Positions 18,616-63,866 of a DNA stretch of 64,000 nt are shown here, in pieces. The notes beneath the pieces were generated by a model. It had not been told where the DNA came from, did not search any database, and was given only the letters and a program-made list of their open reading frames with translations. The DNA is from Hormiphora californensis (lineage: Eukaryota > Animalia > Ctenophora). Position 1 is the first letter of the stretch. Every line of letters starts with the position of its first letter. The stretch is from contig CM035353.1 in the NCBI GenBank assembly GCA_020137815.1, positions 1,364,001 through 1,428,000 of the forward strand, read 5' to 3'. The position numbers and the translations under genes were made by a program.

Positions 18616-20391
18616 TGTCCGCTAAAAGAATACAATATTAAAGTCAGGGTTTTTGAAGATGTCACCCGAAACTCATTAGGGTTTCAGTGACCACTATTGA
18701 GTTGTTCGTAGGCGAACGTCCATTGGGAACACTAAGGCTCCTAATAGGATTACGGCATTTGGGATGAATTTCTCATTGTCCTCTTTGATACATCCTGTAT
18801 TGTCTACTCTTGGGTGTTCAGGTCCATTGCAATCGGTCTAATTGTGGAATCACATTACCTGCATACTTAAGCAAATGCCAATGGGATTCTGTGGTGCCTT
18901 TAAATGTCCTCTTGGCTAATCAACCAAACTAATTGGTAACATTTTTACCAAAAATTTTTAGTGGCCTGTATAGAATTTGGCCCCGGGGGGATTTTCAAAT
19001 TTCCCGATAGCTTCCAAAATTAATCCCCAATGGACTATGGTAGACTACGCGACTTTTAAAATTGACACGTACTCCTGAAAGGGGAAATTTAAAACTATCT
19101 TTGGCAAATTTGGAAATTAATCCCTAGCCAAAACATATTTGGAAAAATTTCGACTCAGGAAAATTTTTTTCGAATGAATGCCATTTCTTTTAAAATTGAG
19201 AGGAAAAAAAAGAAAAGAGCAGGAGGTAAAAGGGTAAGAAGTAGAGAAAAGCGTAAAAGAGGCCCAGAACTGAAAGGAAAAACTTGGGGGACTTTTTTTG
19301 CCACCACGTAAATCCAAAGGGGAAAAGGAGAAGATTGGTAAAATGTGTGAAGCAAATTGGTACAATAATCGTGAGACAATACATAATTTGCCAAAATTCG
19401 ACCTCAGCAGCCAAGATTTTTATCTACTCCGCCCTTTCCTTTAATGAGTGACAAAGGAGCGGAGCCGAAAGATAAGGGGGAATCGAAAGAACCCAAATTT
19501 TCCGTGCAGGCACCGCTTTTTGCTTTCTTGCAACAATTTTTAGGGGGGGGGGGGGGGCCAATCCCCCTTTTTGCCCAATTATCTCAATTAGGGAAATTTA
19601 CCCACCTCTGAATTTAAATTTTCAGATTAGCGACAAAACGGAAAAGGGTTTTCTTGTTAACTAATTTTTTTTTTGGGTTTCACTGTTAAAAAAATCGACG
19701 GTGGGGCCCCCTCTTTTTGCATCATCGGGGCTTATCTTTCCATGGGGCGTTCTTCGTAAAAAAAGGACTGGTATTATCTCTGAGTTCTCATTTTCATTGG
19801 GGTGGGGGGAAATCAAAAAATCACTAATAAAGAAATGAAACGGATCCTTAATACCGCTTTCCCAGCAATCCGGATACTCAACGATTCGGTGAGGATCACA
19901 TGACCTGACTAACTTTAAGAAACATGACACTGTATCTCCTGTGGCGGTCCAATTTAACTGATCTCGGTCACATTGGAAAGTTAATCGATAGCCAAACATA
20001 ATTGGTTAAATTTTTGACCGGAAAATATTTTTTCTAGAATGAATGACCATGTTCATTCCGATAAAAAAAAGAATTTTGAGCTAGAGGTCTAAAATTTTGG
20101 TCAAGTTATTTATTTGTCTCATAGAGTAGCTGTACCAAATTTTAGCACTCCACGATATCTGGAACTATGGTAGACTTAGGGGGGACTTTTTATTGCCACA
20201 CACGTACATCAACAAATGAAAAGGAGAAGATTGGTAAACTACTGTGTGAAGCAAAATTTGGTACAATAACTCCGTGAGACAAATACATAATTTGACCAAA
20301 ATTTCAGACCTCTAGCACAAAATTTTTAATCGGAATGAACTCGCCATTTCTTTTAAAATGAGAGAGAGAAAAGAGAGAAAGAGCGAGGGAG

Positions 20392-27700: not shown

Positions 27701-29272
27701 TATCGTGAAACAATGTTATGGGATCCCATAGCACCCCTAAAATGATGATTAATTCAACAAAATGAGTTGATTTATTATTGAAAAGATTTAAACCGAAGAC
27801 AAACTCAACTAAACGAACAATTTCGATCATAAATCAACTCATTTTGTTGAATTAATCATCATTTTAGGGGTGCTATGGGATCCCATAACATTGTTTCACG
27901 ATATCAATCACAGAAAACCCAAGTCACATGCTTCAACTTGAGAAAATCTCTTAATTATGGCCCAAATAAGATGTCAGGTATCATCATGATCACATGGACA
28001 CCCAAAAACTAGCCCGGAAACACGCTACTACACCTCTCCGGCATTGCAGAGCATAGGCCAAACAAAACCCAAAACTTTTCATGACTTTAGGGATGTTAGT
28101 TCCTGAATGAGTGGAATGAACTACCAAAAATGAAAAATGAACTTTGAGTTTTGACCTTGATTTTTCTTGTGAGCAAAGATCTTTGTTTATCCAATGTTCA
28201 CCCAAATTTTGAAAAAGATTGAACAAAAGGGAGCCGTGATACAGCTCATTGAAAGTCGCAGGAAGAGCCAAAATCATGCATGAGCATTTTCTCAACTGCA
28301 ACGTGACCTGGTGCTTCAATTTCATTTTTATGGTGTTCATTGGAAAGATAAATTCAAGCCAAAGAAAAATAGCACCATGATGGAAAATTAGGATGCTCAC
28401 ATCATAAATGAACGAGAAATGAATGAAGGAATGAAAAATGAATTTTCAAATTTTTGACAAAAAAATATGGAAAAAGTTACCAAGAAATTGATCCAGAGTG
28501 CTCCCATGATTTTTATTCTCGCAACTATCACCGTTTTGACGGGACAACTCGCTAACCCTTACCAACAATCCGTGGCCCGTACACACGACACTATCATATA
28601 TGTTTGTGATTAAACCCCATTGGATTGCTGTTACACGCGCAGCAGCTGTGCTATAGCTGAATATGAGCATATATTCAAAATTGATCACACATAATATGCA
28701 GCGAGTATCATTTGTCTGTCTGTCTGTATCGTTAAATCTCTCGCTCTCTCTCTATCCCTCTCTCTCTCTCTCTCTCTCTCTATCCCTCTCTCTTCCAATA
28801 TCAGGACCTGACAAGAAGCTGAAACTGTCCATCCTCTACCCCGCAACCACTGGTCGAAACTTTGATGAAATCCTCCGAGTTATTGACAGTCTTCAGCTGA
28901 CTGCCTACAAAAAGGTACACACAGAAGTTTTAGGGAATACAGTTACTGGACCCAATTAGTAATACAACTTATTGGGCTATTGGGTGTGCTGCAAGAGAGT
29001 AAGAGATGCTTCGGTTAGCCATCGGTAAACTTAGTACTAATCTAATGGTAGAGTTAGAAAGATATACCTATAAACCATATTGAACCAATTGGTTACTCTC
29101 ACACCCCCCCCCCCTCCAGGTCGCCACCCCTGCTAACTGGCAGTCTGGGGGAGAGTGCATGGTCCTCCCCTCTGTTACTGGAGATGCCGCCAAGGAACTG
29201 TTCCCTGGAATGCGTGTAGAGGAACTTCCTTCCGGCAAGGGCTACATGAGGTTCACTCCCCAGCCCCAGTAG
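21787..29272 (+). CDS. PRDX6: 1-Cys peroxiredoxin (peroxiredoxin-6), 216 aa
   Basis: Exons 21787-21835, 21930-22061 ([12 protein letters not shown]), 22329-22466, 24497-24565 ([12 protein letters not shown]), 28805-28914 ([22 protein letters not shown]), 29120-29272 ([16 protein letters not shown]). Phases consistent. Confidence 0.97.
23096..23582 (+). repeat. 47-bp intronic minisatellite (~10 copies)
   Basis: AACAGACTAACAGCCCAGAAGGGCGCCTTGCTCGACCCTCCCTCACC tandem in Prdx6 intron 3. Confidence 0.92.
24023..24461. mobile_element. Non-autonomous TIR element with TTAA TSD and AGG termini (Kolobok-like)
   Basis: TTAA|AGGTTGACAAGATACCTAA...TTAGGTATCTTGTCAACCT|TTAA with ~100-bp imperfect TIRs. 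Confidence 0.7.
24522..26754 (+). repeat. Tandem array of Prdx6 exon-4 3' end plus splice donor (mainly 40/49/52-bp units, 45 GTAAGT donors)
   Basis: Unit TGCTGCTGGTCTACCTCTAACTGCCCGTGCTGTCTTTATTGTCG|GTAAGTCG. Includes a 750-bp higher-order duplication (identical ORFs at 24912 and 25662). Confidence 0.97.
27026..28578. mobile_element. Foldback element: 750-bp near-perfect inverted arms with a 53-bp spacer, in Prdx6 intron 4
   Basis: Arms 27026-27775 and 27829-28578. Mirrored 136-aa ORFs differ by one residue. GGGCC termini, flanked by GT on both sides. Confidence 0.85.
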
Positions 29273-30200: not shown

Positions 30201-33200
30201 TTACTCTTTCTTAGAGCCCAGTGTTGCCTCAATATTCTTAATTCCTTGGTCCCGTTCCTCCTTGATTTGCCTGAAAATATAATGGGTGTGTTCGGTGTTC
30301 AGCACCTCCTATTTGATTGAATTTGAAACACAACCCAACTGTTGCCAAAAATAGTTTTCACCATTTAAACCATTGCTACGAAGGCTATCCTATTTAAATT
30401 GTTTCATAATGATGTCATAACGATATACCTGATTTCAGCAAGGGCACCAGATTTAGTATTCCTGGCCCCCATCAGCTGCTCAAGGTTAGCCGTTCCCTGG
30501 TCCTTTTCGTCCTTGATATGGCGAATATCTCCAAGGAGGTCTGATTTTGTTGATTTGGCTGCGAACAGTTGTTCCACCTGACAAAGGGGTGGTGTTAAAC
30601 AAACATACCCAAAAGATCGAGATTATATAGAAACAAACAATCATTCAAAATAACTAATAAGAATTAAATTCACGCCCATGAATTCACATTTTTTCGTCCC
30701 TCCTCCTTCTCCTTTCCAATTCCCTCAATTTGAGCATGAAGAGCCGCTTGGTTGGATTTTCCTGCGATGCAACTTTCTAAATTAACTCTGTTTTGTTCTG
30801 CCTCAGCTCCCTTAGCTTCAATGTCAGCCAATAGACCTAGAAATATGGGTGGAGAAAGTTAGGGCGGGTGAAATATCAGCAATCTTATAATTCATGTTCA
30901 AAATAAATGGAGAATTTGACAAGTTTTTACATGTACCGGCTCTTGGACCTACGCCTACATATATCTAACTATATCTAATGCAAATTTGCACGGAAATGTG
31001 ACGACGTGATCCGTCAATGTGACGACGTGATCCGTCAGCGTGACGACATGATCCGTCAGTGTGACGACGTGATTCGTAGGTATCACGTATCACACGTGTT
31101 GAGAACTACTTGCGACTTGAGGGGTCACATCACATGTATAAAAGGGAGAGAAAGAGAGAAAAAGAGAGGGATCACATCACATAGCATATAGCAGACAGGC
31201 AGAGAGAAAAACAGACCCCTCGATTTGCGATCGGTACGATCGCCCCAGTTTTGCTAGTAGACTATAATAGAGTTAGAGCCGACAGTTACTCACCTTTCTT
31301 GGTGGATTGTTGTTTAATTTCCTCCGTCATCTCTTCTTTTCGTTTATGTGTAGTTGAGATTGTCTTAAATTCACGAGTCAGGTTTTCTTTGGCTTCCCTT
31401 GCCTAAAGCAAATGGAGTGCGAAAATTAAATGGGGAATGTATCAGAATTGTTGCCTATTCAGGGGCTGTCTCTGAGACCGCAAAATTCGTTGTGTGGTCC
31501 GCACAAAAGACTAGCAAATTTGGGTGGGTTGTACAAATAAGCACACTGAGCGCGCAAATGATGGAGTTTCGCCAATTTTTTTGTACTATGGGATTCACAA
31601 GACTCTCACCTACTGCTCAGTGAAAACCCGGTGGAAAACGGTTGATCACAAGCTTTGCAGTGATCTAAACCGCTGAGAACTTCATTTCATGATGTATTTC
31701 ATATTTGGTGGGGTACGGCTCTTTATTCGCATGTCACTAAAAATTGAGATAGAAACTCGAAAAAAATCGTCTCATGAGTCATCCAAAATCGTCCATTCTA
31801 CCGATCCCCGGGTTGTTTGGGGTTCCAGGCCCAACCGTCTGGGAGCCTATTGCCACATAAGTAAAAAAGCCGGTTAATTTTTTTCGACCGGGTCATTTCG
31901 CGGTCTCACCAAGTGTCACGTGATCTGAGGTGTTGAAAATTGGATTTCATGTGATTATCTGAGGCTGCAAAACGACTTTTACAAGTAAACATATGAATCT
32001 CTCTCCCTCCCACTATTTTACGTTACAATCTCACTTGTGTGTGCACAGTTACACACAGAAGAGGGGGGGGGACCTTCTACCCTTCTGCTTCACAGGACTG
32101 TGGACCAAGGGCAGTGCTGATCAAACTGTAAACATTTGCAACTAATTGATATCAAAGCAAAAATCACTCTACCCGACTAATTTCAATAGGCTGAATCACA
32201 TGAGCAACTTTTAAAGCTCTCAGAGGTCGATAAAGTGCTCTAATTGGATATAATAGGGTCTAATTGATCTAAATTACAACTTCTCCCATGAAAACGCTAT
32301 GAATTCGTATGAGGGCACTGTACCCACTGACTTGGATACCCTGATTTACATGGGCATCTTTTCTAAGCTCTCAGAGATCGAGAAAGTGCTCTAATTGGGT
32401 CCAATTGACCAAAATAGTTACCAATTTTTCCTGTAATCTCTATAAGTTCATTTTGAGACACTTACCCACTGATTTTGATACCCTGATTCACATGAACAGG
32501 GCATGAGTATCTTTTATAAGCTCATATTTGTGGAAAAAGTGCTCTAATTGAGCATAATTGGGTCTAATTGACCAGAATAATTAACATTTGAGAGGGTGCC
32601 CTCTCTCTCTCAAATCAGTGTGCTAAGTGTCTCCAAATGAACTTATGAACTTATATGAAAAGTGTTAATTATTTTGGTCAATTAATTAATTAGAGCACTT
32701 TATCCACCATTGAGAACTTGGAATAGTTGTTCATTCGAATCAGGGTATCCAAACTAACCTAGTGGGTAAAGTGCCCTCACACGAATTTATACCGTTTCTT
32801 GAGAGGAATCGTAATTTCGATCAATTAGACCCAATTATGCTCAATTAGAGCACTCTTGCCACAAAGAGCTTATAAAAGATACTCATGCCCTGTTCATGTG
32901 AATCAGGGTATCAAAATAAATGGGTAAGTGTCTCCAAATGAACTTATAGGGATTACAGGGAAAATTGGTAATTATTTTGGTCAATTGGACCCAATTATCC
33001 TCAATTAGAGAACTTTATAGATCTCTGAGAGCTTAGAAAATATGCTCATGGGAATCAGCGTATCCAAATCAGTGGCGTAAGTGCCTAATTATATCATGAT
33101 AGTGTTTTCGGGGGAGAAGTTTTAATTTAGATCAATTAGACCAAATTATACTCAATTAGAGCACTTTCTCGATCTCTGAGAGCTTAGAAAAGATGCCCAA

Positions 33201-34486
33201 TGTAAATCAGGGTATCCAAGTCAGTGGGTACAGTGCCCTCATACGAATTCATAGCGTTTTCATGGGAGAAGTTGTAATTTAGATCAATTAGACCCTATTA
33301 TAACCAATTAGAGCACTTTATCGACCTCTGAGAGCTTTAAAAAGTTGCTCATGTGATTCAGCCTATTGAAATTAGTCGGGTAGAGTGATTTTTGCTTTGA
33401 TATCAATTAGTTGCAAATGTTTACAGTTTGATCAGCACTGCCCTTGGTCCACAGTCCTGTGAAGCAGAAGGGTGGAAGGTCCCCCCCCTCTTCTGTGTGT
33501 AACTGTGCACACACAAGTGAGATTGTAACGTAAAATAGTGGGAGGGAGAGAGATTCATATGTTTACTTGTAAAAGTCGTTTTGCAGCCTCAGATAATCAC
33601 ATGAAATCCAATTTTCAACACCTCAGATCACGTGACACTTGGTGAGACCGCGAAATGACCCGGTCGAAAAAAATCAACCGGCTTTTTTACTTATGTGGCA
33701 ATAGGCTCCCAGACGGTTGAGCCTGGAACCCCAAACAAACCGGGGATCGGTAGAATGGACGATTTTGGATGACTCATGAGACGATTTTTTTCGAGTTTCT
33801 ATCTCAATTTTTAGTGACATGCGGATAAAGAGCCGTACCCCACCAAATATGAAATACACCATAAAATGAAGTACCCAGCGGTTTAGATCACTGCAAAGCT
33901 TGTGATCAACCGTTTTCCACCGGGTTTTCACTGAGCAGTAGGTGAGAGTCTTGTGAATCCCATAGTACAAAAAAATTGGCGAAACTCCATCATTTGCACG
34001 CTCAGTGTGCTTATTTGTACAACCCACCCAAATTTGCTAGTCTTTTGTGCGGACTACACAACGAATTTTGCGGTCTCAGAGACAGCCCCTGCTATTTTTT
34101 GAACAAGACAACAGAATTCTGTTGCAGACTGGGAGGTACAGATGGTTTAGTAGTAGTATAATAGTATTACTAAGTACAGGGGTAAAGGAATAGGGACAGA
34201 GGGCTTAAAGTACCTATACTATTAAAGTACTAAGCTATATTACAAATCACAGTGTCCGTACTACAAAAAATAAATATCGAAGCTACATAATATTAAGATT
34301 GAGAAGGGAGGGGCTTCGAACAAGACAATTGGAACGGGAGAAATGAAAAAATGCAAAAGAAGTTGATCCGACAAGTTACTAAAGCTACCTGTGTGCTTTT
34401 GACCTACAGCAGTAAAGGGGGAAATATAGGGGACAGATGGTTTACAGGGAAAGCGGTCAAGTTACAGTCAAACTTGTAATTATAAA

Positions 34487-34550
<64 letters not shown>

Positions 34551-37500
34551 CAGAGAGAGAGAAAGAGAGGAGAGAGAGAGAAGGATGAGATAATAGAGAG
34601 GGGGAGGGTATAGAGTGAGGTAGAGAGTATGAGTAGAGGTAATAGTAGGAAGAGGGAGGCAGAGAGATAAGAGAAATATAAGAGAGAGAGGCTGGAGAGA
34701 GGAGAGATGAGTAGGTCGAGAGAGATTGGTGTTTGTGTGTAAAGTGGATTGGATAATTTTGATATGAGCTTCTGCAGCTGTGCAAGGGTCACCCCTCAGA
34801 AGTCTGTATCAAATATCCACGGAAATTCCGTGGACCGTGGACCATGGAGCGGTATTGTGTGAGGAATTCCTGAATCCTGCCTCTCACTCTGTCAAAACAC
34901 ATGGGCCACGGAATGAAATATGGGGGTGGATTGCGTATCCCAACGGGTGTGATAACAAAAACAGTGAAGAGAATGTAATGTGAGAAGTCGTGGGGGGGTG
35001 GGGTAGATGTGGAGAGATATAGACGATAAAAGGAGGAGAGAGAACAAATCCTAATTTAGGGAACTCAATTGTTAGTGGCAAAAAGCAAGGTTGGACACGG
35101 CTACTGTGGCGGTTATGAATACCGGTATCAAACTTCCTCGTTGTATTGTTCTGGTAAGACCTTATATGGTAAGCAAAAAAAGAGGATGGCCATGAACATA
35201 CACGCAATTCTCCTAAATGATTTGTGCCTTTGTAATTACCCATATGTTCTTGTACGGCATAATTGACTATGACGTTAGAACTGCCAAGTATCAGTAGAAA
35301 CACGAACTGCATTTGCATAATTATTTAAAAGATTCATGATTCAGATTAGGTTAGCTGTTCTGAGAAAGCTCAAAAGATATGTGAGACATGCAAGATAGAG
35401 AGATAGGGAAAGTTAACATAGGAAGGACGTAATGGCTGAGTTAACTTTATTATTGTGGCTGTACCGGCTCGTTCATCCTTACAGTCTACAAAGATAGGAG
35501 ACGGGAGGCTAACGACGGCGAACCGAAGCTGCAAAATGAGAATAAACTGGGGGGTAAGGCCGAACTGGATGCAGAAAGGGGCAACGGTCTGTTTAGAAAT
35601 GGAGGATAACAGAGGGAGGAAGTAGACGAGAGGGGGGAGAATAGAGAGAGTAAGGATGAGAGTGAGAGTAGAGAGTAATAGAGAAGGGAGAGAGAGAGGG
35701 GGAGAGAGAGAAGAGAGAGGGATGGGGGGGAGAGAAAGAGAAGTAGAGAGGATGAGAGAGTAGGAGGATATAGAGAGAGTAGAGAGAGAGAGATATGAAG
35801 AGAAGAGTAGAGAGAGAAGAGATGAAAGAAAAGAAGCAATTGATAGAGTAGATAGAGTAAGATAGGGAGAGGAGAGAGAGAGAAGATGTAGAAACTGGAG
35901 AGAGAAGTGGATAGAGGGGTGGATGTTGGGAGTGGGGATGGAAGGGGGATAGAAGGGGATAGAGTGACAGAGAGGAAAGAGAGTATGGGAGGGGAGAGAG
36001 AAAAAAGGAGAGAGAGACGAGAAGTAGGTGAAGAAGAAGGGGGAGGACGGATGAAGGATGGGGGAGAAGAAGAGGGGGAGAGAGAGAAGATTGAGGGGAG
36101 AGAGAGGAGAGGAAGAGAGAGAGAGAGAGAGAAGAGTATTTGGGCGCAATCATAGTTAGAGGATAAATAGCACCAAGTGGTAGAGTCTCCTGCAATGAGG
36201 ATAGGGAACGGTCATCATAGTCTTGCTCCTGACAAAAAATTGGGTTTCATCATCCAATTAACTGCGTAGGGGCTCAAAAGCAAATTTATCAATGTTTTAT
36301 ATTTCGCTGATACGTAGGACTATCAAAAAGCAGAGTGCCAAACCACTCGCGTTGAAATTCGGCACCGCATTTTGAAATTGGCCAGTTTTAATTTCGAGGA
36401 GCAGGAGGAAGAGCGAAATTCCAGCGACACCGCGACGGAAGTTGGTTGGGAGTTATCCATCATGAATCTAAGGCATGTTGCCAGGAGTTGAAGTGGTGCA
36501 GGTAATCAAATACAATAAACACTTCTGTGCTAAAAGACATTATAAAAGATATGAGAAGTATAAATGCCTTAGCCTTTAGGGTCAGGACGTCATGTCTAAG
36601 ACTACTATATGGACTCGGTATATGTGCTGTAAGTTGGGGGCAGGTAGGGGCTTGAGCCGTGCGCTACGAACAACTATCCTCTTTCAGCATATAAGGTAGT
36701 ACACAAACTAGCATGTCGTTCCAAAGCAGTTTATCAGTTGTCAATATTCAAGAGGGCAACCATGCTATAGTAGGTGGTACAGTGCGTGGGGTTGGTGGGT
36801 GTGCACAACCATGCATGAATGTATTCGTGTATTCTAATAGATAAAAAGCCTAGCAGAGTCTGAGATACGCTGACAAAGTATCTAGGGAATTAGGAAATTG
36901 GTGACGTTCATTGTTTCACATCTATGTATGTAGAGCCTGGAAAGGCCATTCAAATAGAAAAAAAACTAAGTCCCGGAGATCAGGAGATAGACAAAAGTGC
37001 GACCCCAATGCTTGAGTAACGGAAAGAGGAGAGGGTCGCAGAGAATCATGGAACGGTATTCTGTGTTAGTGGTGCCTAAAACCCAGTTGGGAGGGGTCCG
37101 GACGTAAAATAGAACAGAGACAAAAGGAAGGACACGATTTGAGCAGGCTACAAGACAATGGCCCTGCGACAGATCTTTTTACTTTTTCCACGCTTGTGGA
37201 TGGAAACAAACAGGGAGAGAGACGGACCGGAGATTTTACACAACAGTTACCCATATTAAAGAGGGGGGGATGGGCGGGACGCGCCACAGTGCCAGGATGG
37301 GTGTTCATATAAGTTTCTATTTGGTAGCAGGTTGTGGGTCGTGGCCTGCTATACGGGGAATCCCTCAACTTGATTTGATTCGAGTGCAAAACCAGAATTG
37401 AAACGCGGTCTAGGTATTTTGGACACAGGGGTGGGTGTTGCAGGGAGCAATAGCGAGGAAGTGTAATATGAAGTGCAAACCGCGTGTGTAGAGTGTTTAA

Positions 37501-40500
37501 GTGTCCAGGGGAATCCGAGAGGGCGGTAGAGATATAGCAGAGGTCGGACTGCTAGTCCCTAGTAGACCGCTGCTGCGGGTCCAAGTGCCGATAAGTCGCG
37601 TTTATCGGTGATGGAATCAAATACTCAGGTAACGATTTGGTAGGCGATGGTGAGCTCTAAGGTCACTTTACTTAATGGATATTTAACTATGTAGTCGGAA
37701 ATACTGAATTGTGGTAGAGATTGAAGTGATCCTCAAGCAAACCTTTTTCTCCACTGCTATGCAGATGAAGGGGTACACCTCTTCATCTTCAGCTACAGTT
37801 TGACTGAGGATGGGATGGTTTTGAGAGAACCCCCTAGAAATTAGGTTTCCGTAGCTAGCAATACTAAGGCCGTGAATAGTACCAGGACGAATTGAATATT
37901 ATATTATAGGATCGTACCCGTTGCTTTATAATGGCTGCAGCCAATAGCTGGTGCTAAGAGCAACAATTAGGTTTCAAGGGGATAGGGGGAGGTTCAAAGG
38001 GACAATAGAAATAGTTCACTTGGCAAATAGGAAGTGAAGTCTATCAGGATGCATGCGATAGGCAAGGAGAGAGAAAAGAGAGAGACAATATTTATGAAGA
38101 CTAGGGGGAAGGGTATAGCTAGGGGAGCTAGAGGGAGATTGAGAGGAATCGAAACACAGGAAATGATAGACAATACAGGCCGGCGTGTATAATGTAGAGT
38201 GCAACTGATGCAAAGAGTGAATTACAAGTACCATGGCTACTGAAGTCAACAAAAAGTGAATGGGTTAGAAGTTAATTTCAAATAAAAAAGAGCATTCAAT
38301 ATACCCAAGAAGGATTGGAATGGCTGCCAATACAAATTTACCATAAACTGTTTCTAAGCCACCCTCACTGTATGAGACCAAAACGAAATGTAAAAAAGTA
38401 GGCTAAGAAGTCGAAAGACCCCAGGTGGTGGGGCGAAGTTCACTATGAAATTCTTTACGTGTATGTTGGTGTCCACGTGGAAGATCGTTCGGGCAACACA
38501 ACAAATCACAAGGTATTTAGGAAATCGTTATTTGACACATTTTTGTAAGAATGTGGAACACGTCAAATGGAATTGAGAAACTCGGGTGCCAAGTAATAAA
38601 AGGGTGATAGAAGAAACAATAACTGAGATCGTATTTTCAATGGCGACCAAAGCGTCAAGTGACGAAAAGGCGCGGTGTAAGATTATATTCACATTTCCTT
38701 TTTACCTAGCGCTATATTGCCTGCATTGCCGCCCTCTTGTGTCAACATCTGACGAGCTGACCCGATCGATTAGAAATAGAACAAATACCGGGTTTCCTTC
38801 CTAATACGAACGTGGGAGTGGCATGCCTAACCAGCTGCTTGGAATAAGAAGAAAATTACTACCTCAAAGATAGAGGGACGCTGAATCTAGATTGAAAGAG
38901 ATATGACATTGGTGCTGAAACACCTTTGTCGACAGCTCTTGGTATGGCCCGGTTCACCCGTATTAATTATTAGGTTTAAAGTACTACTTAATTAATTATT
39001 ACGTATAATTACCTGGCCGGCCATGGGTGTGGAAACTATCACACGAGGACATCAAGTGTGTTATCCTTCACGGCGGAAGGGTAAAAAGCCATACAGCCGA
39101 CCAACAGACTCCTTCAGACGAACATCTCCCAAGTTACTCTCCTTTTGCGTTTTGCGGCGACGTTCACTACTCGAGGTCGTTCATACGCTGCACCGTGCAT
39201 TACTATTGCCTCGTGGGTGTGTCGAGGTTGATGAGGGTGGTCGGGGGCCTAGGCCAACCTGTAGGTCCTCTTTGGAGTACGAGCGCGCATGGGTATTGAG
39301 GGTGCAAGATAGGAGGGACCATGTGGGGAGGGGGCTGTGATGAAAGGAGGTGGACAGTATAGGGAGGGGCTGCACCACGTGGCGAACGGGAACTGGGAGG
39401 GGTTGGGGCATTACTATTTGCCTGGTAGCTGAATGAGGTGTGGGTGTGTTAAGGGGGGGCCTAGGACCCCCTGGTGGTATGGGGCCGCGGTGGGGGGGAA
39501 GGAGGTAGAGGGGGGGGTTGGAAGAGGGGTGAAAGTGGGTTGGGGGAACCAGGCGGGCGTGTAGTGAGGGTTGGGGGGGGCCTCAAGCCTTATATTAGGT
39601 GTCTCGTTTGGAGGTACAGGGTCCGCGCCCTTTGGGAATGGGGGGAAGTCTCATCTCATATCGGGCTGCGGCTGTTTCCCTCGGCACTCTCTGCAAAAAC
39701 GCAGCTCCCAACTGATCTCTATCTTTCTATTTCCCACCTTACCAGTTACATTTCGTCATGGGGACACATTATCATACCGTGGAGTTTTTTCTTTGCTCTG
39801 TTAATTCTCTGGGTCATGAATCTGTATAGGGGGACACAATGGAAAGCACGTCTAATTGTGAGGCGCGGCGCTGCGGCTATCTGCACGTGCGGTATTGATT
39901 AATTCAGAAGTATTGCTGAGGGAGACAATCAGTTACGTTTAATGGGTGCTGTCCTCGTCTCTTTAATCTCGCGCACGGTAGTGGGATAATATTAGCCGCG
40001 GCGCGGCGCAGTGCTGCACGTGTGCTGGTCTTCCTAGATAGAAATGTCCAGATAGAAACTCCAGATAGGAATTCCAAATACGAGAATGTTTAATGACGCC
40101 TGTATTACCCTTGTTCTGCAGGTCCATCTCGTCTGGCCTTAATGTCTGTCAACCATGATGGAAAGTAGAGTGGAAAAAATGAGAAATTGATCCGGAATCG
40201 TGTATGTTGTTAAAAATTATTGTGCAAGAGATTATAGATGAAGATCAGTCAAAGTTGGTTATAAAGCCGCGTTATGACGGTGTTGATCAGTTTCTGGATG
40301 ACCAGTGGACGATGTGGGAGTTTTCCTACACTTTCGTTTTCCCCTCCCCCTCTTGCGCTCCTTCCCTATCGCAGCGCTCTGCATAGGCTCCAACTCTTTT
40401 TTTCGTCCTTTTGAATCCAGCGTCGACCCAATGGTTAGTTTCAGATATACGCTTGCCTGCTTTGTTGTCCTAAGGTTTGGCGGTTGGGACAGGTGCACCC

Positions 40501-43500
40501 CGGTCTCTTACAGTGGGGCCATCCGCTCCGTTCGTAACTCCTTCTGCCCGCGTTGTTCACTCGTCACATAGAGACAGTCCTTGTCGCCGAATGACGGGGA
40601 CAAGGGGATGAAATTAGAGGGGACCGTCACCAGTTGCACATAAATTCGAAAACACCTAGAGAATCGTGGAAGTAGCAATTTGGGGTGAGGGTTGAACACT
40701 TGGCAAATGAGTTAGGAAAGTACTTGGTATATTCAAATAGGATTGATCGATATAACATTTCCTACGTATTTTGGCGTGTTGATACTGCCCATGGCTTGTG
40801 AGGTCATCCTGTATGGGACTCCACCAGGCGGGCCTCGTTTGCCTGTCTTGTTAACTTTGAAATATCGCTCGTATGAAGATGTATCCCAGTATAAGTGGTA
40901 GACATAGTGGTAGACCATATGGGGTAACATTGTGGTAACATAGTGGTAACATAGGGCATAGGCATAGGGATAACATAGGTGTAACATAGGGATAACATAG
41001 GGGTAAGCTATATTGATAACATATGGGGATGAAAACGATAGGGGTACCATATGGATTACATAGGGGATAAACTCAGGGTAACAGTGTGGTGGGAGACAAT
41101 AGTATAACATAGAGGGTACATAGGGGATAACTACGGGTAACATAGTGATAAAACAACAAAACAAAAAAAACAATTAGGTCTAGCATAGGGTAACAGTAGG
41201 GATTACAGTAGGGATAGAACATAGGGGATAACAACATAGGGGTTAAATAGGGTAGGGCATAGTGTTAACAAGTAGTTGGATGACATAGTGTAGGGATAGA
41301 GGTAACATAGAGGTAACATATGGTGGTACATAGGTAGTAACTAGGTTGGATAACCATAGGGTTAACGATAGGGGTAAGCAATAGTGAGGTGAGACAGATG
41401 GATATACATAGGGTAACATTGGGGTAACATAGTTTTAACCTAGGGATAAACATATGGCTAACTTAGGTAATAGGACGTAGGGATAGGCCTGTTGTTAACA
41501 TTGGTAAACAAATAGTGTACCTAGGGGTTAACCTAATTTTAATGGAATGGGAAGAATGAGAAGATACACCATGATTTGGTTGATACCGGAGAGCAATCTG
41601 TTCAGCAATCAGTTTTGCCGGGGTGTGTGCTATGTGTGGGATGGGGATGGTATCTGTGGGTGAGAACTCGTGTATGAGGGTTGGGGGCAGATGAGGTTGC
41701 AGGATAGGAGGTGAGGAACATCTGATGAGGCACTCGCGAAGCGGCCTGTGTTGAATTTGATAAGTAGGGGTGATATAGAGGAGCACTTGGAGAAATGCGA
41801 AGTTGGTAGTTCTAGAAACGTGTGCAAGTTGTACCGGAACCCCGCAGCTGATCAGTATAGTAGTATGTACTGATCAGTAGTGTACATGAAGGTAGCGAGT
41901 AGGGTACAACAAGTCCTATAGTATGTGGTATTACCTCCATAACGTATCTCTTTTGCTGCCGTAGTGTCACTAATGTCGCCCTCGGATCTCCGTCATTGTG
42001 TTCGCTTAGCGTCCCTCATTGGCTGGCAGATGTAGGTCTTCAGGCTCCTCTGCATCATCACGTCTTCCGGTCTTTGTGTTTCGACCTAGCGTAGAAGAGG
42101 TATTTAGCTGACTGAGTAGGTAGGGAAGAACCGGTCGTAATTAGCCGTAATTTACGCCCACTAATTTTGAAGAGACCGTCGGTAGATTAGCCGTGTTGAC
42201 TTGACTTTTAATTTGTCATCACGAGCACAATACCTGAGAATGTACGACTAGGAACACACTAGCCTAAAATATGAGTATTCAATTCCAGGTGACGTTTTCT
42301 ATTCATTTGAGAAAACATGGCATAAGTTTGGTCTGTGACTCGAACTAGGAGAAATTGAACACGGGTGGAGAGATTAACTTCTTTGTCGGGCGAATAGCAG
42401 TCTGGTTTGAAAGCAGGTTTCGTCCGCGCTAATTATTATGTGCGTACAATTACGATGGTAAAGATGGCAGTTTACTTACTCAAGTATATAAACAAGGTAG
42501 AGCGAAGCTGCAGTATGTAGTAAAGTCTACCTATTGAAGCGAGGGTCTCATTTTCAGCGTGCGATGTCCGTTAGCGGGCGGCCTGGCTTCATTTTCACCT
42601 GGAACTGGGGCCAAATTACCGAATCTTGAACCTGGAATGAATGATCAGATTCAGGGGTCGAAGGGTCCAGAATGGCGGACAAAAGTTGGCTTCAACAAAC
42701 GCTAGCACCAAAATGTTATCTACAGAAGCTCAAAAAATTTCAATGTTTTATTTTCCGATCTAGGAGCTTCGCAGAGGCCAAACACTCGCTTGAAATTCAG
42801 GCAACATTTTGATTCCATTTTTCGGAGAGAGTGAGAGACAAAATTCCACGCTACGACGGTTGGATTATCCATCATTCTAGGGCATGTTGCCAAGTCAGTC
42901 AAACATCAAACACTTCTGTGATGAACATTAGAAAAGTTGAGTTAAACCTTATTTCTAGAAGTATGTCTAGACTCTATAGCTCGTATATTGCTAATAGAGG
43001 AAGCTAGCTCTTAGAACACTTCCTCTTTCAGCATATAAGGTAGTACACTATATCGTTCAAGCAGTATCGTTGTCAAATTGCAAGAACCATAGCTGATATA
43101 GTGTCAGTGCGTGGGTTGTTTGTGCACAAACATCATAATCGTGATTCGTATTCTAATAATAAAAAGCCTAAAATAGATACGCTACAAATATTAAATTAGA
43201 AATTTACTTCATTGTTTCACATCTATGTATAATCAAACATTCAAATAGAAAAAAAATGAAAGGAATAGAGAGAAAGCTGAGAAAAGCTGATAACTCAGAG
43301 ATCATCGGTTCGTATTCCTATCCCATTCACGTAATAAAAAGACAAAGGAAAACACGTGCAGCTGCAAAACATGGCCTGCACAGATCTTTTTCCACATTGT
43401 GGCATGGAAACACACCGATTATACACACATTACCCATATTAAAAGGTAGCACCCCACAGGCATTGTTCATATATTTCTATGTGGTAGCATGGTGATCGGC

Positions 43501-44086
43501 CTGCTATATAGGGGATCCCTCAACTTGATTTGATTCGAGGCAAAACCAGAATTGAACGCGGCTAGGTATTTGGACACAGGGTGGGTGCAGCAATGCGAGG
43601 AAGTGATATTATGCACCGCGTGTAATTTTAATGCCAGGGATCAGAGAGCGAGAGAGAAGAAAAATCGAGCTGTCCTATAACCACTCTGCGGTCCACAGTG
43701 CATATCCGTTATCCGCATGGGAATCGAACTCAGTAACGATGTACGGTGGCTCTAATCACTTTACTAATGAATGCATCAAACTGAATTGTACAATATGAAA
43801 TTCTCAGCAAACTCTCACCAAGAGTCTCAGAACAGTACAGTTCTGTCAGAGCATTGGCCTGACAGGTACAGTTTACTATGGATGGTTTACCCAGAAATTA
43901 ATAACCGTAGACAATATTATAGCTAGGAATAACCAGAGAATAATATTTATATAGCGACCTGCTTTATATGGCCGACCATGCTGCTGCACATAGTTCAAAG
44001 GTTCAAAGGAACAAAGAAACTGTTCACTGGCAAATAAGAGTGCAGAGAGCAAGAGAGAGAGAGAGCAAGAGAGACAAATAGAGAGA

Positions 44087-44130
<44 letters not shown>

Positions 44131-44144
44131 AAGAGAGAGAGAGA

Positions 44145-44206
<62 letters not shown>

Positions 44207-47200
44207 AATAGAGAGAGGGAGAGAGGGGAGCTAGAGGGAGAGAGATAGAAACACGGAAATGAGGACTACAGCCGCGTGTATAATTAAGTCACTATGAAGA
44301 GAGTGAATTACAAGTAACCATGCTACGAAGTCAACAGAAAGTCGAATGGGTAGGTATGTCAAATAAAAAGAGGCATTCAAATACCCAAAAAATTTGCTCC
44401 AAGACAATTTCCATAAACTTTTCTAAGCCCCCTCACTGTATGAGACCATAAACGAAATGTAAAATAGCTAAAATCAAAGACCCACATGGTGGCTCACTAT
44501 AAATTCTTTCGTGATTTGTTTACACTAAGCGTTCCACACACACAAATCACAATATTTAGTCGTTTGACACATATTTGTAAGAATGTGACACGTCAAGATT
44601 TGAGAACGCCAAGAAATTAAAAGTATACGACAGAACTAGAGAACTATTTTCTGACACACAAGCGTCAAGGACGAAAGGAACGGTGTAAGATTAATTCATT
44701 TCCTACCTATATTCCTGCATGCCCCCCTCTTGTGTCAACATCTGACACTGACCTCAATTAAATAAACAATACCTGACGGCTGACCCTCGAGGGCCCTCCC
44801 TAATACGAACTGGCAGCATACCAGCTGCTGCTCGAAAGAAGAATAAGATTACCTTCAAATAGAGGTGACCTTGCATATAGCTGGACCCGGACCCCCTTTT
44901 CGCGAGTTCAGTAAAGGAGGATTAGAACATAACAAAGGGGACCTGATCTAGGACTAGGTTGACATTGGTGCTGAAACCCTTTGTCACAGATCTGGTAACC
45001 CGGTTCACCCTTATTAATTATCAATTAATTAATTAACTAACTATTAATTAATTATAAATTACCTGCCCCATGGTAGAAATATCAGCGAGGACATCACGTT
45101 TGTTATCCTTCACCCCAGACACCACCAACAACTCCTTCATCAATTCCCCCTTACTCTCTTTCTGTTTTCCCAGGTTCACTACTTCGTTCATCGCTGCACC
45201 GTGTACTACTATCGCCTGTACGGGAAGGGGTGTGGGGTGTTAAGGGGCCTAGGCCAAGCCTTAGGGGTCTCTTTGAGTACGAGGCCAGGGGTAGTGAGGG
45301 GGCAAGATAGGGAGGGACCATGTGGGGAGGGGGCTGTGAGGAAAGGAGGGGCCAGATAGGGAGGGGCTGCACCACTGGCGAGGGACTGGAGGGGTTTGGG
45401 CATTATACTATCGCCTGTACGTGAAGGGGGTGAGGGGTACGTTGAGGGGCCAGGTGGGGGAAGGAGGGAAGAGTGAAGGAGAGGTGAAGTGGGGATTGAC
45501 CAGGGTGTACAGTAGGCCAAGCCTTATATGGGTCTCTTTGAGTCTCTTTGAGTCCCCCCTTTCTCTCTCCTATCGTGCGCTGTTCTCTCGCCAACTGATA
45601 TCTCTCTCTCTCTGAGTCAGAGAGAGTCTCTCTGTTTCCCATCTGTTTCCCACGTCTTACCTTGTCTGCAGGTCCATCCAGTAGCTCTATGTTACCCACC
45701 CTCTCCTTAATGTCTGCAACCTGTGGAATGGGGTGAAAAATAAGAAATGGACGCCGGATCATGTTGTAAATTATTTGCAGAATATAATGAAATCAGTTTG
45801 TAAAGCCGCGTTATACTTTGATCAGTTCTGATAAAGTGGACGATTTGTTTTCCTTCGTTTTCTCCCTATCCAACAGCTCCTGCATAGCTCCACTCTTTTT
45901 CTCCTTTGAATCCGCTCGACCCCTTAGTTCAGATAACGCTTCTGCTTTGTTGTCCTTGGTTGCCTTGACAGTAACCAGCTCTTTCAGGGCCTCCCTCTTC
46001 GTCTCCTTCACCTGGCCTCGCTGGTTCAACTCCGCACATAGAGACAGCTTGGTTGCCATTACACCAGGAGGAATTATGGGGACCTCGCCACTTGCATCTT
46101 CAGAAAACACCTAGAGATTGGTTGAGGGTTGAAAACTTGGCAAAGGAGTTAGGAGAGTACTTGATGTATTCAAATAGGATTGATTGATTCTATTACCGTT
46201 TCGTTGATGCTTCCCAGCTTGTGTATCTCCTGTAGAACCCCACATCGGGCATCTTTTACTGTCTTGTACTTTGAAATATCCTGTAGAGAGAGACATGTAT
46301 CCAGTAGGGGTAATATATAGTGGTAACATAGGGATAACATAGGGGTAACATAGGGATTACATAGGGATAACATAAGGATAACATAGGGATAACATAGGGG
46401 TAACATAGGGGTAACATAGTGGTAACATAGGGGTAACATAGTGGTAACATAGTGGTAACATAGGGATAACATAGGGATAACATAGGGATAACATAGTGTT
46501 AACATTGGGGTAACATAGTGGTAACATAGGCGTAACATAGTGGTAACATAGTGGTAACATAGGGATAACATAGGGGTAACATAGGGATTACATAGGGATA
46601 ACATAGGGATAACATAGGGATAACATAGGGGTAACATAGGGGTAACATAGTGGATAACATAGTGGTAACATAGAGGTAACATAGAGGTAACATAGTGGTA
46701 ACATAGGGATAACATAGTGGTAACATAGGGGTAACATAGGGGTAACATAGGGATAACATAGGGATAACATAGGGGTAACATGGGGGTAACATAGTGGTAA
46801 CATAGGGATAACATAGGGATAACATAGGGATAACATAGGGATAACAGTGTTAACATTGGGGTAACATAGTGGTAACATAGGGGTAACATAATTTTTAGGG
46901 AATGGGGAAAATGAGAAGATACACATGATTGGTGATACGTACAATCTTTCCAGCATCAGTTGCCTTGTGATGTGTGGGATATGATCTGTGGGGTGAGAAC
47001 TCTGATGAGGTTCAGATGAGGTTCAGATGAGGTGAGAACTCTGATGCACTCGCAAGCTGCACTGGTGAATTTGAAAGTGGGTGATATAAGAATTGAGAAA
47101 TGCGAGTTGGTATTATAAACGTGTGACAAGTGTCCGGCCCCTGCAGCTGATCAGTATGTAGTATGTACTGATCAGTATGTACATGAAGTACATGTAGTAC

Positions 47201-50200
47201 AACAAGTCCTATAGTATGTGGTATTACCTCCATAACGGATCTCTTTTGCTCCTTAGTGTCACTAATGCCTCGGATCTCCTTCATTGTGTTCGCTTTAGCG
47301 TCCCTCATTCTGGAGATAGTCTTCAGCTCCCTCTGCATCTCCGTCTTCCGCTCTTTGTTTCGACCTAGCGTGGAAGAGGTAATTAGCTGACTGAGTTGTG
47401 GAAGAGACCTCGGTAATTAGCCGGTAATTAGCCCACTGAATTGTGGAAGAGACCTCGGTAATTAGCCGGGTGGACTTGACTTTTTAAATTTGTCTCACGA
47501 GCACAAGACTGAGAATGTACGACTACACACTACCTAAAATAATATGCAATTCAGTGACGTTCATTATTAAAAACATGGCATAAGTTGGTCTGTGACTCGA
47601 CTGGAGAATTAACTGGAGAATTAACTTCTTTCGCGAATAGCAGCTGGTGAAAGCAGGTTTCTCCGCGCTAATTTATTATGGGGTACAATTACGAGGTAAA
47701 GATGGCAGTTTCTCAATATATAACAAGGTAACGAAGCTGCAGTATCTAGTCAGTTACCTATTGAAGCGATCTCATTCATCGTGATGTCCTTCCTCTTCTT
47801 TTCAGCCTGGAACTGGGCCAAATTTACCGAATCTGAACCTGAATGAATGATCAGATGCAGGTCAAGTCAGAATGCAACAAAAGTTGGCTTCAACAAACAG
47901 CTAGCACCAATTTATCTACCGAAGCATCACAGACGGTGTGAGCCACACGACTGACACCTTACACCTAAACACCTAAACAACTAAACAACTGACACCAACC
48001 TGCAATTGAAGATATCTTACAAAGCTCTTGAAGCACAGCTCCTTTGTTTTCCTTAGCTTCGCCCCTCTCTTCGACCTGTCCAAATAAGGAAGGGGTCAAC
48101 ACCAAATAAGGAAGGGGTCAACACCAAATAAGGAAGGGGTCAACACCAAATAAGGAAGGGGTCACCACCAAATAAGAAAGGGGTCAACACCAAATAAGGA
48201 AGGGGTCAACACCAAATAAGGAAGGGGTCAACACCAAATAAGGAAGGGGTCAACACCAAATAAGGAAGGGGTCAACACGGGGCATACGGAATTAATAATG
48301 TCATTCATGGATTACAATAATTCCAGAACTGCTAATTATCAGTCGGTTAATTAATCAATAAAACTACCTCTCTGAGTAGACTGCGTTTCTTCTCCTTGGT
48401 CGAGTTAATATCTCCAATCTCCCTGTTCACGCTCTTCAGAAGACTATCTCTTTGTTTGATTTCCATCAACCCAACTTCTTCCAGGGGCCGAACACGTGAC
48501 AAATCTGGGAGGGAGGAACTCTTATTGAACGCATGTATCGCGAGGTGAAATTAGGTGGGATATGTATGTGTAGGACGTGAAAGTGATTCGAAAAACTGCA
48601 GCTAAATCTGAGGAAACTCTACAGAATTAAAAGTAGCGTATTTGTGAGAATATTATACCAATGTCAAAGTACTGGTCTGTTTCAATACTGAAAGCCATCT
48701 TTTCCATGATCACAAAGTATACAACGTATCAGCAACACTCTCTCTTGAACTGAGGCTCTATCTCACATCTCCCGTGGTAATAGAGCCATTTACTTCCTGC
48801 TCTCTCTAGCTCTCACATTCTTATACCGACCCAATGACGGGCCGATTGCAAAAATTCACTACTAAATGGCCCATACACACATCTATAGGTATGTGTGTAC
48901 TACACAGCATAGAGTGAGTGAACGGGAATATACTGGCAAGGGATAAAAGCAAAACAAACGTATTCACCTGACTTGTTATGGACATTTTCAGGTTCAGAAG
49001 AAACTAAAGTAGGTTCTGAGGGTGTGGTGAGGGATACTGTTGATGTGCTAGAAGACTGTAGGAACACAGCATCACTTTGAGTGGCTTTGTGCGCATCAAC
49101 AGTAGTGGCCCTTTGAGTGTCCGCATCAGTAGTAGTGCCACTTTGAGTGTCCATATCAGTAGTAGTGGCACTTTGAGTGTCCATATCAGCAGTAGTGCCA
49201 CTTTGAGTGTCCGCATCAGTAGTAGTGCCACTTTGAGTGGCTTTGTGCGCATCAACAGTAGTGGCACTTTGAGTGGCTTTGTGCGCATCAACAGTAGTGG
49301 CACTTTGAGTGTCCGCATCAGTAGTAGTGCCACTTTGAGTGTCCGCATCAGTAGTAGTGCCACTTTGAGTGTCCGCATCAGTAGTAGTGCCACTTTGAGT
49401 GGCTTTGGCTACATTATCAATAGTGCCACTTTGAGTGTCCGCATCAGTAGTAGTGGCACTTTGAGTGGCTTTATCCGCCTGACTGGATCTTGGGTGTTGA
49501 AGTCGATGGTAGCGATGGTAGAAGAGAAGGAGAAGTACAAAAGGGACAACAAAGGTCCCTATCAGTACATAAACCATGCTGGAGTGATATAATTGGGTCA
49601 GCTGGGTTTGGGGCAGGGACGAGCAATAAGGCAACTGGATTCTCTGGAGTGAGAATTGGAATCATAAGTATAATGAGAGACACAAAGGCTCATATGATTG
49701 TAGTCGGTCAATAAATCCACCCCCTCTCTCTTTCTTTTTATTCTCCTTCACTCACTTCAATCTTTCTATCCCCAGCTCTCACACACATACGATCACTCTA
49801 TCTCTATCTCTCTCCTTCCCTCTCTCGCGCTCTCTCCTTCCTTCTCGATCTATCCGCACAAGTAATCCCTCTCCCTCTCATTATATCGTCAAGCATACAT
49901 ACCACGGGCAAATGAGCTGTTTAAAACATGTCTCAAGGATACAGAATTAGGCTCAACTGTACATCTTTAGATAGAAGATAGATAGAAGAATCTTAATTAA
50001 GAAGAAGAATTAATTAGGCTCAACTGTACAAGAATCTTAATACATGGCTCAACTGTACAAGAATCTTAATACATGGCTCAACTGTACAAGGATACAGAGT
50101 GGACCAACACAGAATCTTAATACATAGAAGGAACACTGTGTGTACATTTTATGCAAAAAGTTTTTGGGACAAAAGGAGGCATCAGCGAAATAATATCAGC

Positions 50201-50277: not shown

Positions 50278-50961
50278 GAGACCAGGAGGAATATTTCATA
50301 ACATATGTTGTTCTCCTGATAAGTGATAAGGTCCAATGCAAGCTGCGAACACCAAACAACTTGTACAGCAAATGTACGACAGTGTTATAGTGGTACTGGT
50401 GCTGCAGTGTTTCTACGTGTAAAATAGTTGCCTGAGTAGATCACAACACATTGTACATAATATCCATCGGTAGTGGCATCGGTAGTGAGCCTTGGAGCGG
50501 AAGGGTCTGACAGTATACGGAGGTATGAAATGAGGGATGAAATGAGTTATGAACTATCAAACGTACCATTTATTTCTCGGAGAAGGGATCGTTTTGCCTC
50601 TTTACTTTTGACAACCTCCATAGCGTCACACAGCACCTGGGAGAATGTCTGTGCACCGGTCAATGGTATTATAGTTGTTGATCATACATCCGGTTAACCC
50701 TTTGTGGACAAAAAGCCCCCTGTCGACTTCCAAACATGGTCTAGAAATAGGTTCAAAGTACTGGTCACCTGTGACCCAATCGTAAAAGGTTGTGCATGTA
50801 ATAGTGTATAGTGATTGTTAGTTCCCACTCAGCTAATGATCCAGGTATAATATGTTTCCACTTACCGAGTGCTTCAGATCCATAATATCTCCGAGAGAGT
50901 GAGACCTGCCCGGCCCCGCCTTATTATCGTCACATGAAATTAGGAATCCTTGGGTGATATC
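30201..50961 (-). CDS. 13 exons encoding a ~527-aa Lys/Glu-rich ~17-residue helical repeat region, in frame with glycogen synthase
   Basis: Exons 50961-50866, 50636-50567, 48504-48368, 48075-48000, 47364-47228, 46280-46197, 46110-45817, 45720-45661, 45215-45063, 31402-31294, 30836-30688, 30577-30429, 30270-30201 (TAA). All GT-AG with matching phases. Confidence 0.75.
31460..34091. mobile_element. 2.6-kb foldback-type DNA transposon, CAGGGG termini, ~930-bp TIRs, 5-bp TSD
   Basis: CTATT|CAGGGGCTGTCTCTGAGACC...GGTCTCAGAGACAGCCCCTG|CTATT. Mirrored ORFs at 31689 and 33674. Interior is made of inverted subrepeats, with no transposase seen. Confidence 0.85.
36250..42725. other. Insertion-error-rich duplicate of 42725-47920 (probable uncollapsed raw long read)
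   Basis: Colinear with the downstream copy including the exons, but full of 1-3 bp insertions that destroy the frames. Confidence 0.8.
46320..46890. repeat. 10-bp minisatellite (TAACATAGGG/TAACATAGTGG)n in an intron
   Basis: Read directly. It is the source of the MLPLCY ORFs. Confidence 0.92.
48080..48278. repeat. 22-bp array abutting the acceptor at 48075
   Basis: About 9 copies of CCAAATAAGGAAGGGGTCAACA, which on the sense strand is TTGAC plus a pyrimidine tract. Confidence 0.9.
48968..49577 (-). CDS. Putative alternative first exon: N-terminal membrane anchor plus Thr-rich DADTQS/KATQS repeats
   Basis: ATG at 49577 (MVYVLIGTFVVPFVLLLLFYHRYHR), 203 codons plus 1 nt to donor G|GTGAAT at 48968, phase-compatible with the acceptor at 48504. 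Confidence 0.6.
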
Positions 50962-51058
50962 CTAACAGATATATAATTATTAGTGATGTCAGTATACCTC
51001 ACAATTGTGATACAAGTAATATTAGTAATTAGGTAATTAATATAATTATTTTAGTTAC

Positions 51059-63860
<12,802 letters not shown>

Positions 63861-63866
<6 letters not shown>

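Follow-up and report, generated by a model that had tools for sequence, protein, structure and literature searches.

Results

The gene at the locus

The window, by which we mean the whole stretch of 64,000 nucleotides of Hormiphora californensis DNA that was analyzed, is eukaryotic sequence in which GT-AG introns are short and tandem arrays numerous, and its minus strand carries a gene for glycogen synthase (GYS). Matches to the profile PF05693 are found in the exons from 63866 downward, three of which score 53-90 bits against a cut-off of 27 and place the product in this family; the gene start lies past the window end. The catalytic region is 81% identical to the GYS of Bolinopsis over 493 columns, and the best protein matches of exon 52890-52652 are the Mnemiopsis and Bolinopsis GYS, plus one 154-aa fish fragment. 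Our gene model, built from homology and the inspection of GT and AG signals, has 26 exons and one terminal stop and encodes 1109 aa within the window; the usual short introns of the gene are 86-110 nt in size. Spliced sequences came from a seawater RNA-seq run (X1), whose contigs are mostly 90-95% similar to the window and hence stem from an allele or a close relative. The parts of the gene are as follows.

50866..63866, minus strand: GYS catalytic exons (PF05693), the Ser-Pro phospho-cluster exon and exon 50961-50866, from profile matches and splice inspection
51184-51059, minus strand: Ser-Pro phospho-cluster exon, directly after the catalytic core
50567..50636, minus strand: exon with the first tail repeat, phase 0 in and phase 1 out, joined to exon 50961-50866 by an X1 contig
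30201..48504, minus strand: shared tail, 12 exons, 499 aa, from homology and the alignment of orthologues
48504-48368, 48075-48000, 47838-47758, 47364-47228, 46280-46197, 46110-45817, minus strand: tail exons 1-6
45720-45661, 45215-45063, 31402-31294, 30836-30688, 30577-30429, 30270-30201, minus strand: tail exons 7-12
48368..48504, minus strand: first shared tail exon, with a phase-1 acceptor (X1 contig, homology)
47758..47838, minus strand: 81-nt tail exon, spliced in by an X1 contig and absent from an earlier figure of 675 aa

Six X1 contigs fall on the tail exons, on exons 50961-50866 and 50636-50567, and on intronic repeats. Their joints lie at CT..AC intron ends (48366>48073, 47997>47835, 47756>47362, and 50864>50634), with sides of 80, 77, and 23 letters at the tail joints and 35 at the 50866>50636 joint, those of 48366>48073 (23) and 50864>50634 (35) being short; the contig over 50866>50636 runs 19 letters past 50572. 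All four exonic variants listed in the contigs are synonymous in the gene model. A start of the first tail-repeat exon at 50768 was discarded, as both the X1 contig and the orthologues place it at 50636. Within exon 50866-50961, only ~35 letters of the 96 nt align to the contig, whose first ~96 letters fit nothing at 85%; the exon has an internal AG before 50905, and the mismatch may reflect divergence or another 5' partner.

A conserved tail with a 17-residue period

C-terminal to the catalytic core and the Ser-Pro cluster, the protein continues into a repeat tail of ~520 aa (522 residues). To our knowledge, glycogen synthase is ~700 aa almost everywhere, and among the best 120 of 677 matches only two ctenophore proteins exceeded 866 aa. 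The tail aligns to the C-terminal 566-569 residues of the Bolinopsis and Mnemiopsis GYS with 49% identity (566 and 563 columns), and the orthologues are collinear with it and unbroken across the intron 50566-48505, passing from exon 50636-50567 into exon 48504-48368. A first-pass annotation had suggested that the locus makes both an enzyme with the tail and a membrane-anchored form of the same tail; the former is borne out by this collinearity and by the spliced contigs joining the tail exons. The tail is already present in public gene models, unremarked there, and a full-text literature search gave, among the matches listed, no description of a ctenophore GYS tail or of a membrane-anchored GYS isoform. 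In Bolinopsis and Mnemiopsis, the tail is alternatively spliced with 38-aa and 10-aa cassettes. At 30837-31293, our model is ~40 residues short of the long forms of these species, and the 38-aa cassette located there is alternatively spliced in both. Two Mnemiopsis models (P0002 and P0122; 1900 and 1938 aa) carry ahead of GYS an extension of ~690 residues that gives PHD and endonuclease/reverse-transcriptase-like matches; the annotation has probably merged a retroelement with the gene.

No Pfam family scored above its cut-off in the tail and no PDB match was found; a resemblance to WH2 repeats gave no Pfam hit and was discarded. In the Hormiphora window, in Bolinopsis, and in Mnemiopsis alike, the autocorrelation of the tail peaks at 17 residues (also at 31 and 34), the 17-residue value exceeding that of 500/500 shuffles, and the hydrophobicity power is greater at 3.4 than at 3.5 residues per turn. 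One tail exon is predicted to fold as a single 81-residue helix (pLDDT 84.9), with which Foldseek returned 0 PDB matches. By prediction, the tail combines the long helix and the regular hydrophobic periodicity of a coiled-coil rod, and its 17/5 pattern, 3.4 residues per turn, fits a left-handed coiled coil. We infer that such a rod may associate with itself, and from the 17-residue, 3.4-residue/turn periodicity, pairing through the tail is plausible.

Other elements of the window

Exon 57899-57755 is flanked by intronic arrays (57131-58249) that repeat the exon's own ends, 56-nt units holding the acceptor and the first codons and 71-188-nt units the last codons and the donor, and that create multiple candidate splice sites. 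The region 34400-42720 duplicates, with many indels, the sequence downstream of 47910 and contains tail exons in broken form (76% identity over 2043 columns between 46120-47910 and 40683-42711); this copy has the look of an unpolished long read within the assembly, and it brings the intron 45062-31403 to 13.7 kb. Between two runs of a 16-mer array, 51417-52010 is a non-repeat insert matched by one X1 contig and by two more contig ends, which suggests a dispersed element inserted into a minisatellite. Long inverted repeats at 27060-28540 and 31450-34130, the second pair seen by eye, are likely foldback or MITE-like elements, and the same 151-codon frame lies at 27159-27611 on the plus and 27993-28445 on the minus strand. 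On the minus strand at 16411-18621, an uninterrupted frame of 737 codons gives three matches to LDL-receptor class A and is hydrophobic in an N-terminal stretch.

An open frame inside the intron before the shared tail exons

The intron 50566-48505, whose acceptor at 48504 takes phase 1, contains the 610-nt segment on which the idea of an anchored form was built. The segment is as first described: an AG ends at 49579 and is followed by C and an ATG at 49577, no stop interrupts the frame before the donor, and this phase-1 donor, located after 48968, is in frame with the exon at 48504. Its parts and surroundings are the following.

48968..49577, minus strand: candidate alternative coding exon, from the ATG to the phase-1 donor, 203 codons + 1 nt (from sequence only)
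49518..49577, minus strand: 20-aa hydrophobic helix, predicted signal anchor; A at -3 and G at +4 of the ATG
49473..49517, minus strand: basic flank with 3 Arg, 3 His, and 1 Asp in 15 aa, predicting a cytosolic C-terminus
49073..49472, minus strand: tandem array of 30/36-nt units with 13 TQ[S/R] repeats, predicted disordered
48968..49073, minus strand: non-repeat, Ser/Thr/Pro-rich 35 codons up to the donor CAG/GTGAAT
49578..49598, minus strand: acceptor-like site just before the ATG, 5.9 bits; a join to exon 50636-50567 gives an early stop
49578..49663, minus strand: in-frame phase-0 acceptor, 8.0 bits, with exon start 49643 and 22 open codons without an ATG
48818..48967, minus strand: alternative ends, either read-through to a stop at 48902-48900 (225 aa) or an 85-nt intron to 48882, with a stop about 20 codons later

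The hydrophobic helix of ~19 aa and the basic residues after it are also found as described, residues 1-19 having a mean Kyte-Doolittle value of 2.67 and the next 15 holding 3 Arg and 3 His. Two figures needed correction: the array contains 13 TQ[S/R] units and not ~15, and the product spliced to the tail would be 702 aa in length and not ~675, the difference arising because the 81-nt exon 47838-47758 had been left out. The units comprise 5 KATQS, 5 ADTQS, 2 MDTQS, and 1 TQR, with 0 TQT; Thr makes up 32%, Ala 16%, and Asp 16% of the array, and the unit length variants (30 and 36 nt) are multiples of 3. AlphaFold predicts a helix at residues 2-27, with pLDDT 86-93 over residues 1-20, and disorder after residue 33. 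The segment has no similarity to exon 50636-50567.

The splice matrices were trained on the GYS gene itself. The candidate donor scores 7.0 bits, a value reached by 29 of 1316 intronic GTs while 9 of the 25 true donors score lower; for the acceptor beside the ATG, the 5.9 bits are reached by 43 of 1186 intronic AGs. An open frame thus extends from an ATG to a phase-compatible donor of normal strength, as in an alternative first exon. Among the 49 ATG-ORFs of at least 50 aa in the sense introns (21,936 bases, the noisy duplicate 42800-34400 omitted), the candidate's is the sole in-ORF phase-1 donor of at least 5 bits; the antisense control gave 20 ORFs and one such donor, without a hydrophobic start. 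The candidate N-terminus is also the most hydrophobic among the 189 intronic ATG-ORFs of at least 33 aa on both strands, all these thresholds for ORFs, donors, and hydrophobicity having been chosen after the candidate was known. The combination of anchor, repeats, and in-frame donor is unique among the GYS introns. The array unit is stop-free in three of the six frames, two of them sense, and therefore the openness of the array itself says little. The non-repeat flanks are open for 33 codons 5' of the array and 35 codons 3' of it, with intronic frequencies of 0.178 and 0.164; the chance of both being open is ~0.03 per frame or ~0.06 for two open sense frames. The open frame and the donor phase are shown by the sequence; the segment itself is a candidate exon.

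Joining exon 50636-50567 to the AG beside the ATG was discarded, since it gives a stop within five codons; the segment is therefore no simple inclusion exon at the 49578 AG, and to serve as first coding exon it would have to possess a separate 5' end. With A at -3 and G at +4, the context of the ATG is favorable by the Kozak rule, and no ATG is found between 49643 and 49577. Spliced leaders occur on at least 56% of Hormiphora reads (PMC8527503), and together with the context of the ATG and the lack of another one upstream to 49643, this makes trans-splicing at either AG plausible. GA tracts upstream were discarded as evidence of a promoter, 31 such tracts being scattered across the window.

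Selection, transcripts, and homologues

Mucin-like repeats often evolve without purifying selection. Among the changes between array units, 1 of 12 is synonymous, or 0 of 7 without the degenerate second unit, against 0.24 expected under neutrality; the array shows no trace of purifying selection, the numbers being small. Conservation was likewise absent among the 6 full-length ctenophore GYS models: in 6/6, there was neither a hydrophobic segment above KD 1.13 nor a TQS array. An overall codon-usage score was discarded as confounded by amino-acid composition, and a test of synonymous codons only was used instead. By this test, 0 of 32 coding windows score lower than the 3' non-repeat flank, which is intron-like, and 5 of 32 score lower than the 5' flank, which is ambiguous.

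The X1 contigs, which at a depth of 3-5 inform on presence and not on absence, do not cover 48968-49577 and bridge the intron neither way, and a second RNA run (X2) gave only GA-repeat matches. In metagenome contigs, the first tail exon had 598 pattern matches and the candidate exon 350, none of them confirmed. Of 7998 candidates, none scored as a protein of 312-996 aa with the tail, a full HMMER scan with one tail exon returned a single 126-aa fragment, and a comparison of a tail exon with longer proteins gave 0 hits in 468 candidates; these homologue searches are insensitive, as the known Bolinopsis orthologue was missed by the latter two. The exact candidate ORFs are not in a collection of 15 billion proteins, and the candidate exon had no usable match in the ESM Atlas.

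Predicted topology and the nature of the repeats

Type III signal anchors have a hydrophobic helix with the more positive flank on its C-side (PMC2139883). By prediction, the candidate has the expected N-terminal helix of 19-27 residues, the short uncharged N-terminus, and the positive C-flank, with a charge balance of net +3.5 on the C-side of the helix. For residues 1-20, the prediction is accordingly a type III signal anchor that is not cleaved and leaves the C-terminus cytosolic; this orientation would place the spacer and the tail in the cytosol, as docking requires. The reverse topology, with the Thr-rich stalk exoplasmic, is conceivable by analogy. The 702-aa form has a sequon at residue 201. 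The ~180 disordered residues, rich in Thr, Ala, Asp, and Ser, are predicted to form a spacer.

The repeats had also been compared with binding sites for the dynein light chain LC8. The natural LC8 motif has Thr or Val at +1, in an anchor of the form [T/V/I]-Q-[T/V] (PMC3078936), and non-TQT anchors are uncommon and weaker (PMC12057147). LC8 clients carry their motifs in cytosolic disorder beside a dimerizing segment. In the candidate, disorder is predicted around the TQ motifs; the conserved +1 Thr/Val is missing in 13/13 units (12 TQS, 1 TQR, 0 TQT), and a Thr/Asp-rich disordered spacer is therefore the better reading. Judged from the motif, LC8 binding is unlikely, though avidity over 13 sites could compensate.

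Discussion

Our tentative reading is that 49577-48968 may be an alternative first coding exon spliced to the exon at 48504, a good possibility that stops short of being probable. The 702-aa product of such splicing would lack the catalytic part and carry a predicted membrane anchor. Its transcript would start internally and gain its 5' end through an upstream non-coding exon, for which 49902 and 50234 are candidate donors, or through spliced-leader trans-splicing at the AG before the ATG. Possible as well, if somewhat doubtful, is that the segment is a non-coding intronic minisatellite, a stop-free 30-nt unit with internal ACT periodicity accompanied by a pyrimidine tract and a cryptic GT. The window has 18 long arrays, many of them intronic and some with long ATG-ORFs, the 11-mer array alone carrying one of 203 aa, and pyrimidine tracts of the kind encoding the hydrophobic helix are freely supplied by introns. 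The lack of a synonymous excess among the units, the intron-like codon use of the 3' flank, the missing orthologous segment in the six models, and the two open sense frames, which lift the chance of the open flanks to ~0.06, all agree with a minisatellite. Chance would then have to explain, however, why the best N-terminal helix of 189 ORFs comes with a good start context, a basic flank, and a phase-1 donor of a kind that no other ORF in 21.9 kb contains; moreover, the unit lengths are all multiples of 3, a period of this kind being found in only 2 of the 18 long arrays.

The remaining readings place different ends on the same frame. Continuing past the donor, the frame reaches the stop at 48900 after 22 more codons, and with its 7.8 bits the acceptor at 48882 would make an 85-nt intron, near the 86-110 nt usual in the gene; either could complete a nested same-strand gene for a membrane or secreted mucin-like protein of ~225 aa without the GYS tail, its Thr/Ser-rich stalk being typical of exoplasmic mucins. 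Hormiphora has 2357 nested intronic genes, many of them parallel to their host (PMC8527503). We nevertheless find a nested gene unlikely here: both alternative ends are unremarkable intron-like sequence, the stretch from 48967 to 48505 contains no AATAAA or ATTAAA whereas the GYS 3' region has an ATTAAA, the protein collection lacks the exact ORFs, and agreement in phase with 48504 would have to be put down to a one-in-three chance. Very unlikely, in turn, is a cassette exon that enters through the 49643 acceptor and replaces exon 50636-50567, resulting in an enzyme with a transmembrane helix and spacer ahead of its tail. Entered at 49643, in frame at phase 0, the segment has the phases of exon 50636-50567, so that such a swap could take place, from exons ending at 52652, 51059, or 50866; with 8.0 bits the 49643 acceptor surpasses the 5.9 bits of the site beside the ATG, and Bolinopsis and Mnemiopsis splice their tails in alternative forms. 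But with the enzyme in the cytosol, this protein would need to send its tail through the membrane, an orientation that the basic C-flank disfavors, and the single X1 contig in the region joins 50866 to 50636; the segment is also unlike exon 50636-50567 in sequence, and entry from that exon at 49578 meets a stop.

The anchored form of the tail envisaged by the first-pass annotation is, then, partly upheld: the anchor and spacer are in frame with the tail and the charge asymmetry predicts a cytosolic tail, but no homologue was found and three other readings compete with it. If the alternative first exon is used, the rod of the anchored isoform might co-assemble with the identical rod on GYS and could so hold GYS with its glycogen at a membrane, in the manner of mammalian STBD1. 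Taken as a whole, this chain from alternative exon through membrane docking is improbable. Were the exon in use, the anchor would come from the GYS gene itself, a compact way of localizing glycogen without CBM20 proteins; were the segment only a minisatellite, the tail would remain a finding of value, its conservation in three ctenophores implying a lineage-specific scaffolding or placing of glycogen synthesis in an early-branching animal group.

Relation to known systems

Eukaryotic glycogen synthases (GT3, PF05693; human GYS1 7q0b, Caenorhabditis elegans 4qlb, and yeast Gsy2) share with the Hormiphora protein a catalytic core followed by a Ser-Pro phospho-cluster. The Bolinopsis protein matches PF05693 at E 7e-295 and the solved GYS structures over residues ~17-667; compared with other eukaryotic GYS, the ctenophore proteins add a C-terminal repeat tail of 520-570 aa. 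As a coiled coil, the tail would belong with the non-heptad types: for those with delocalized stammers, the accessible range lies above 10/3 = 3.33 (PMC4786415), and 17 residues over five turns, or 3.4, fall within it. Most non-heptad coils are nevertheless above 3.5, and no 17/5 example appears in the available part of that source.

Multivalent LC8/DYNLL clients such as ASCIZ, Nup159, and Bmf (EDKATQTL) have repeated T-Q cores in predicted disorder beside a helical rod, as the candidate would by prediction; its first unit matches Bmf at D-4, K-3, A-2, T-1, and Q0. In contrast to these clients, the +1 residue is Ser (12) or Arg (1) and never Thr or Val, and K-3 is present in 5 of the 13 units.

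The closest parallel is with STBD1 (genethonin-1), which has a type III N-terminal anchor in the ER, a linker, and a cytosolic C-terminal part that dimerizes and contacts glycogen synthase (PMC5358331). The candidate resembles it by architecture only, in its putative anchor, linker, and cytosolic part, and has neither sequence relation to STBD1 nor a CBM20 domain; no CBM20 was found in the candidate exon, the scanned tail exons, or the orthologues, and the candidate is therefore not an STBD1. In a 74-species scan, CBM20 proteins were reported absent from Ctenophora (PMC12913940), so that the anchor would be a substitute and not a homologue. Unlike with STBD1, a single gene would here supply both anchor and enzyme, and an identical rod would bring them together: an isoform made of signal anchor, spacer, and 17/5 rod would zip onto the rod of GYS and take the place of STBD1 and its CBM20, an arrangement that we regard as a long shot.
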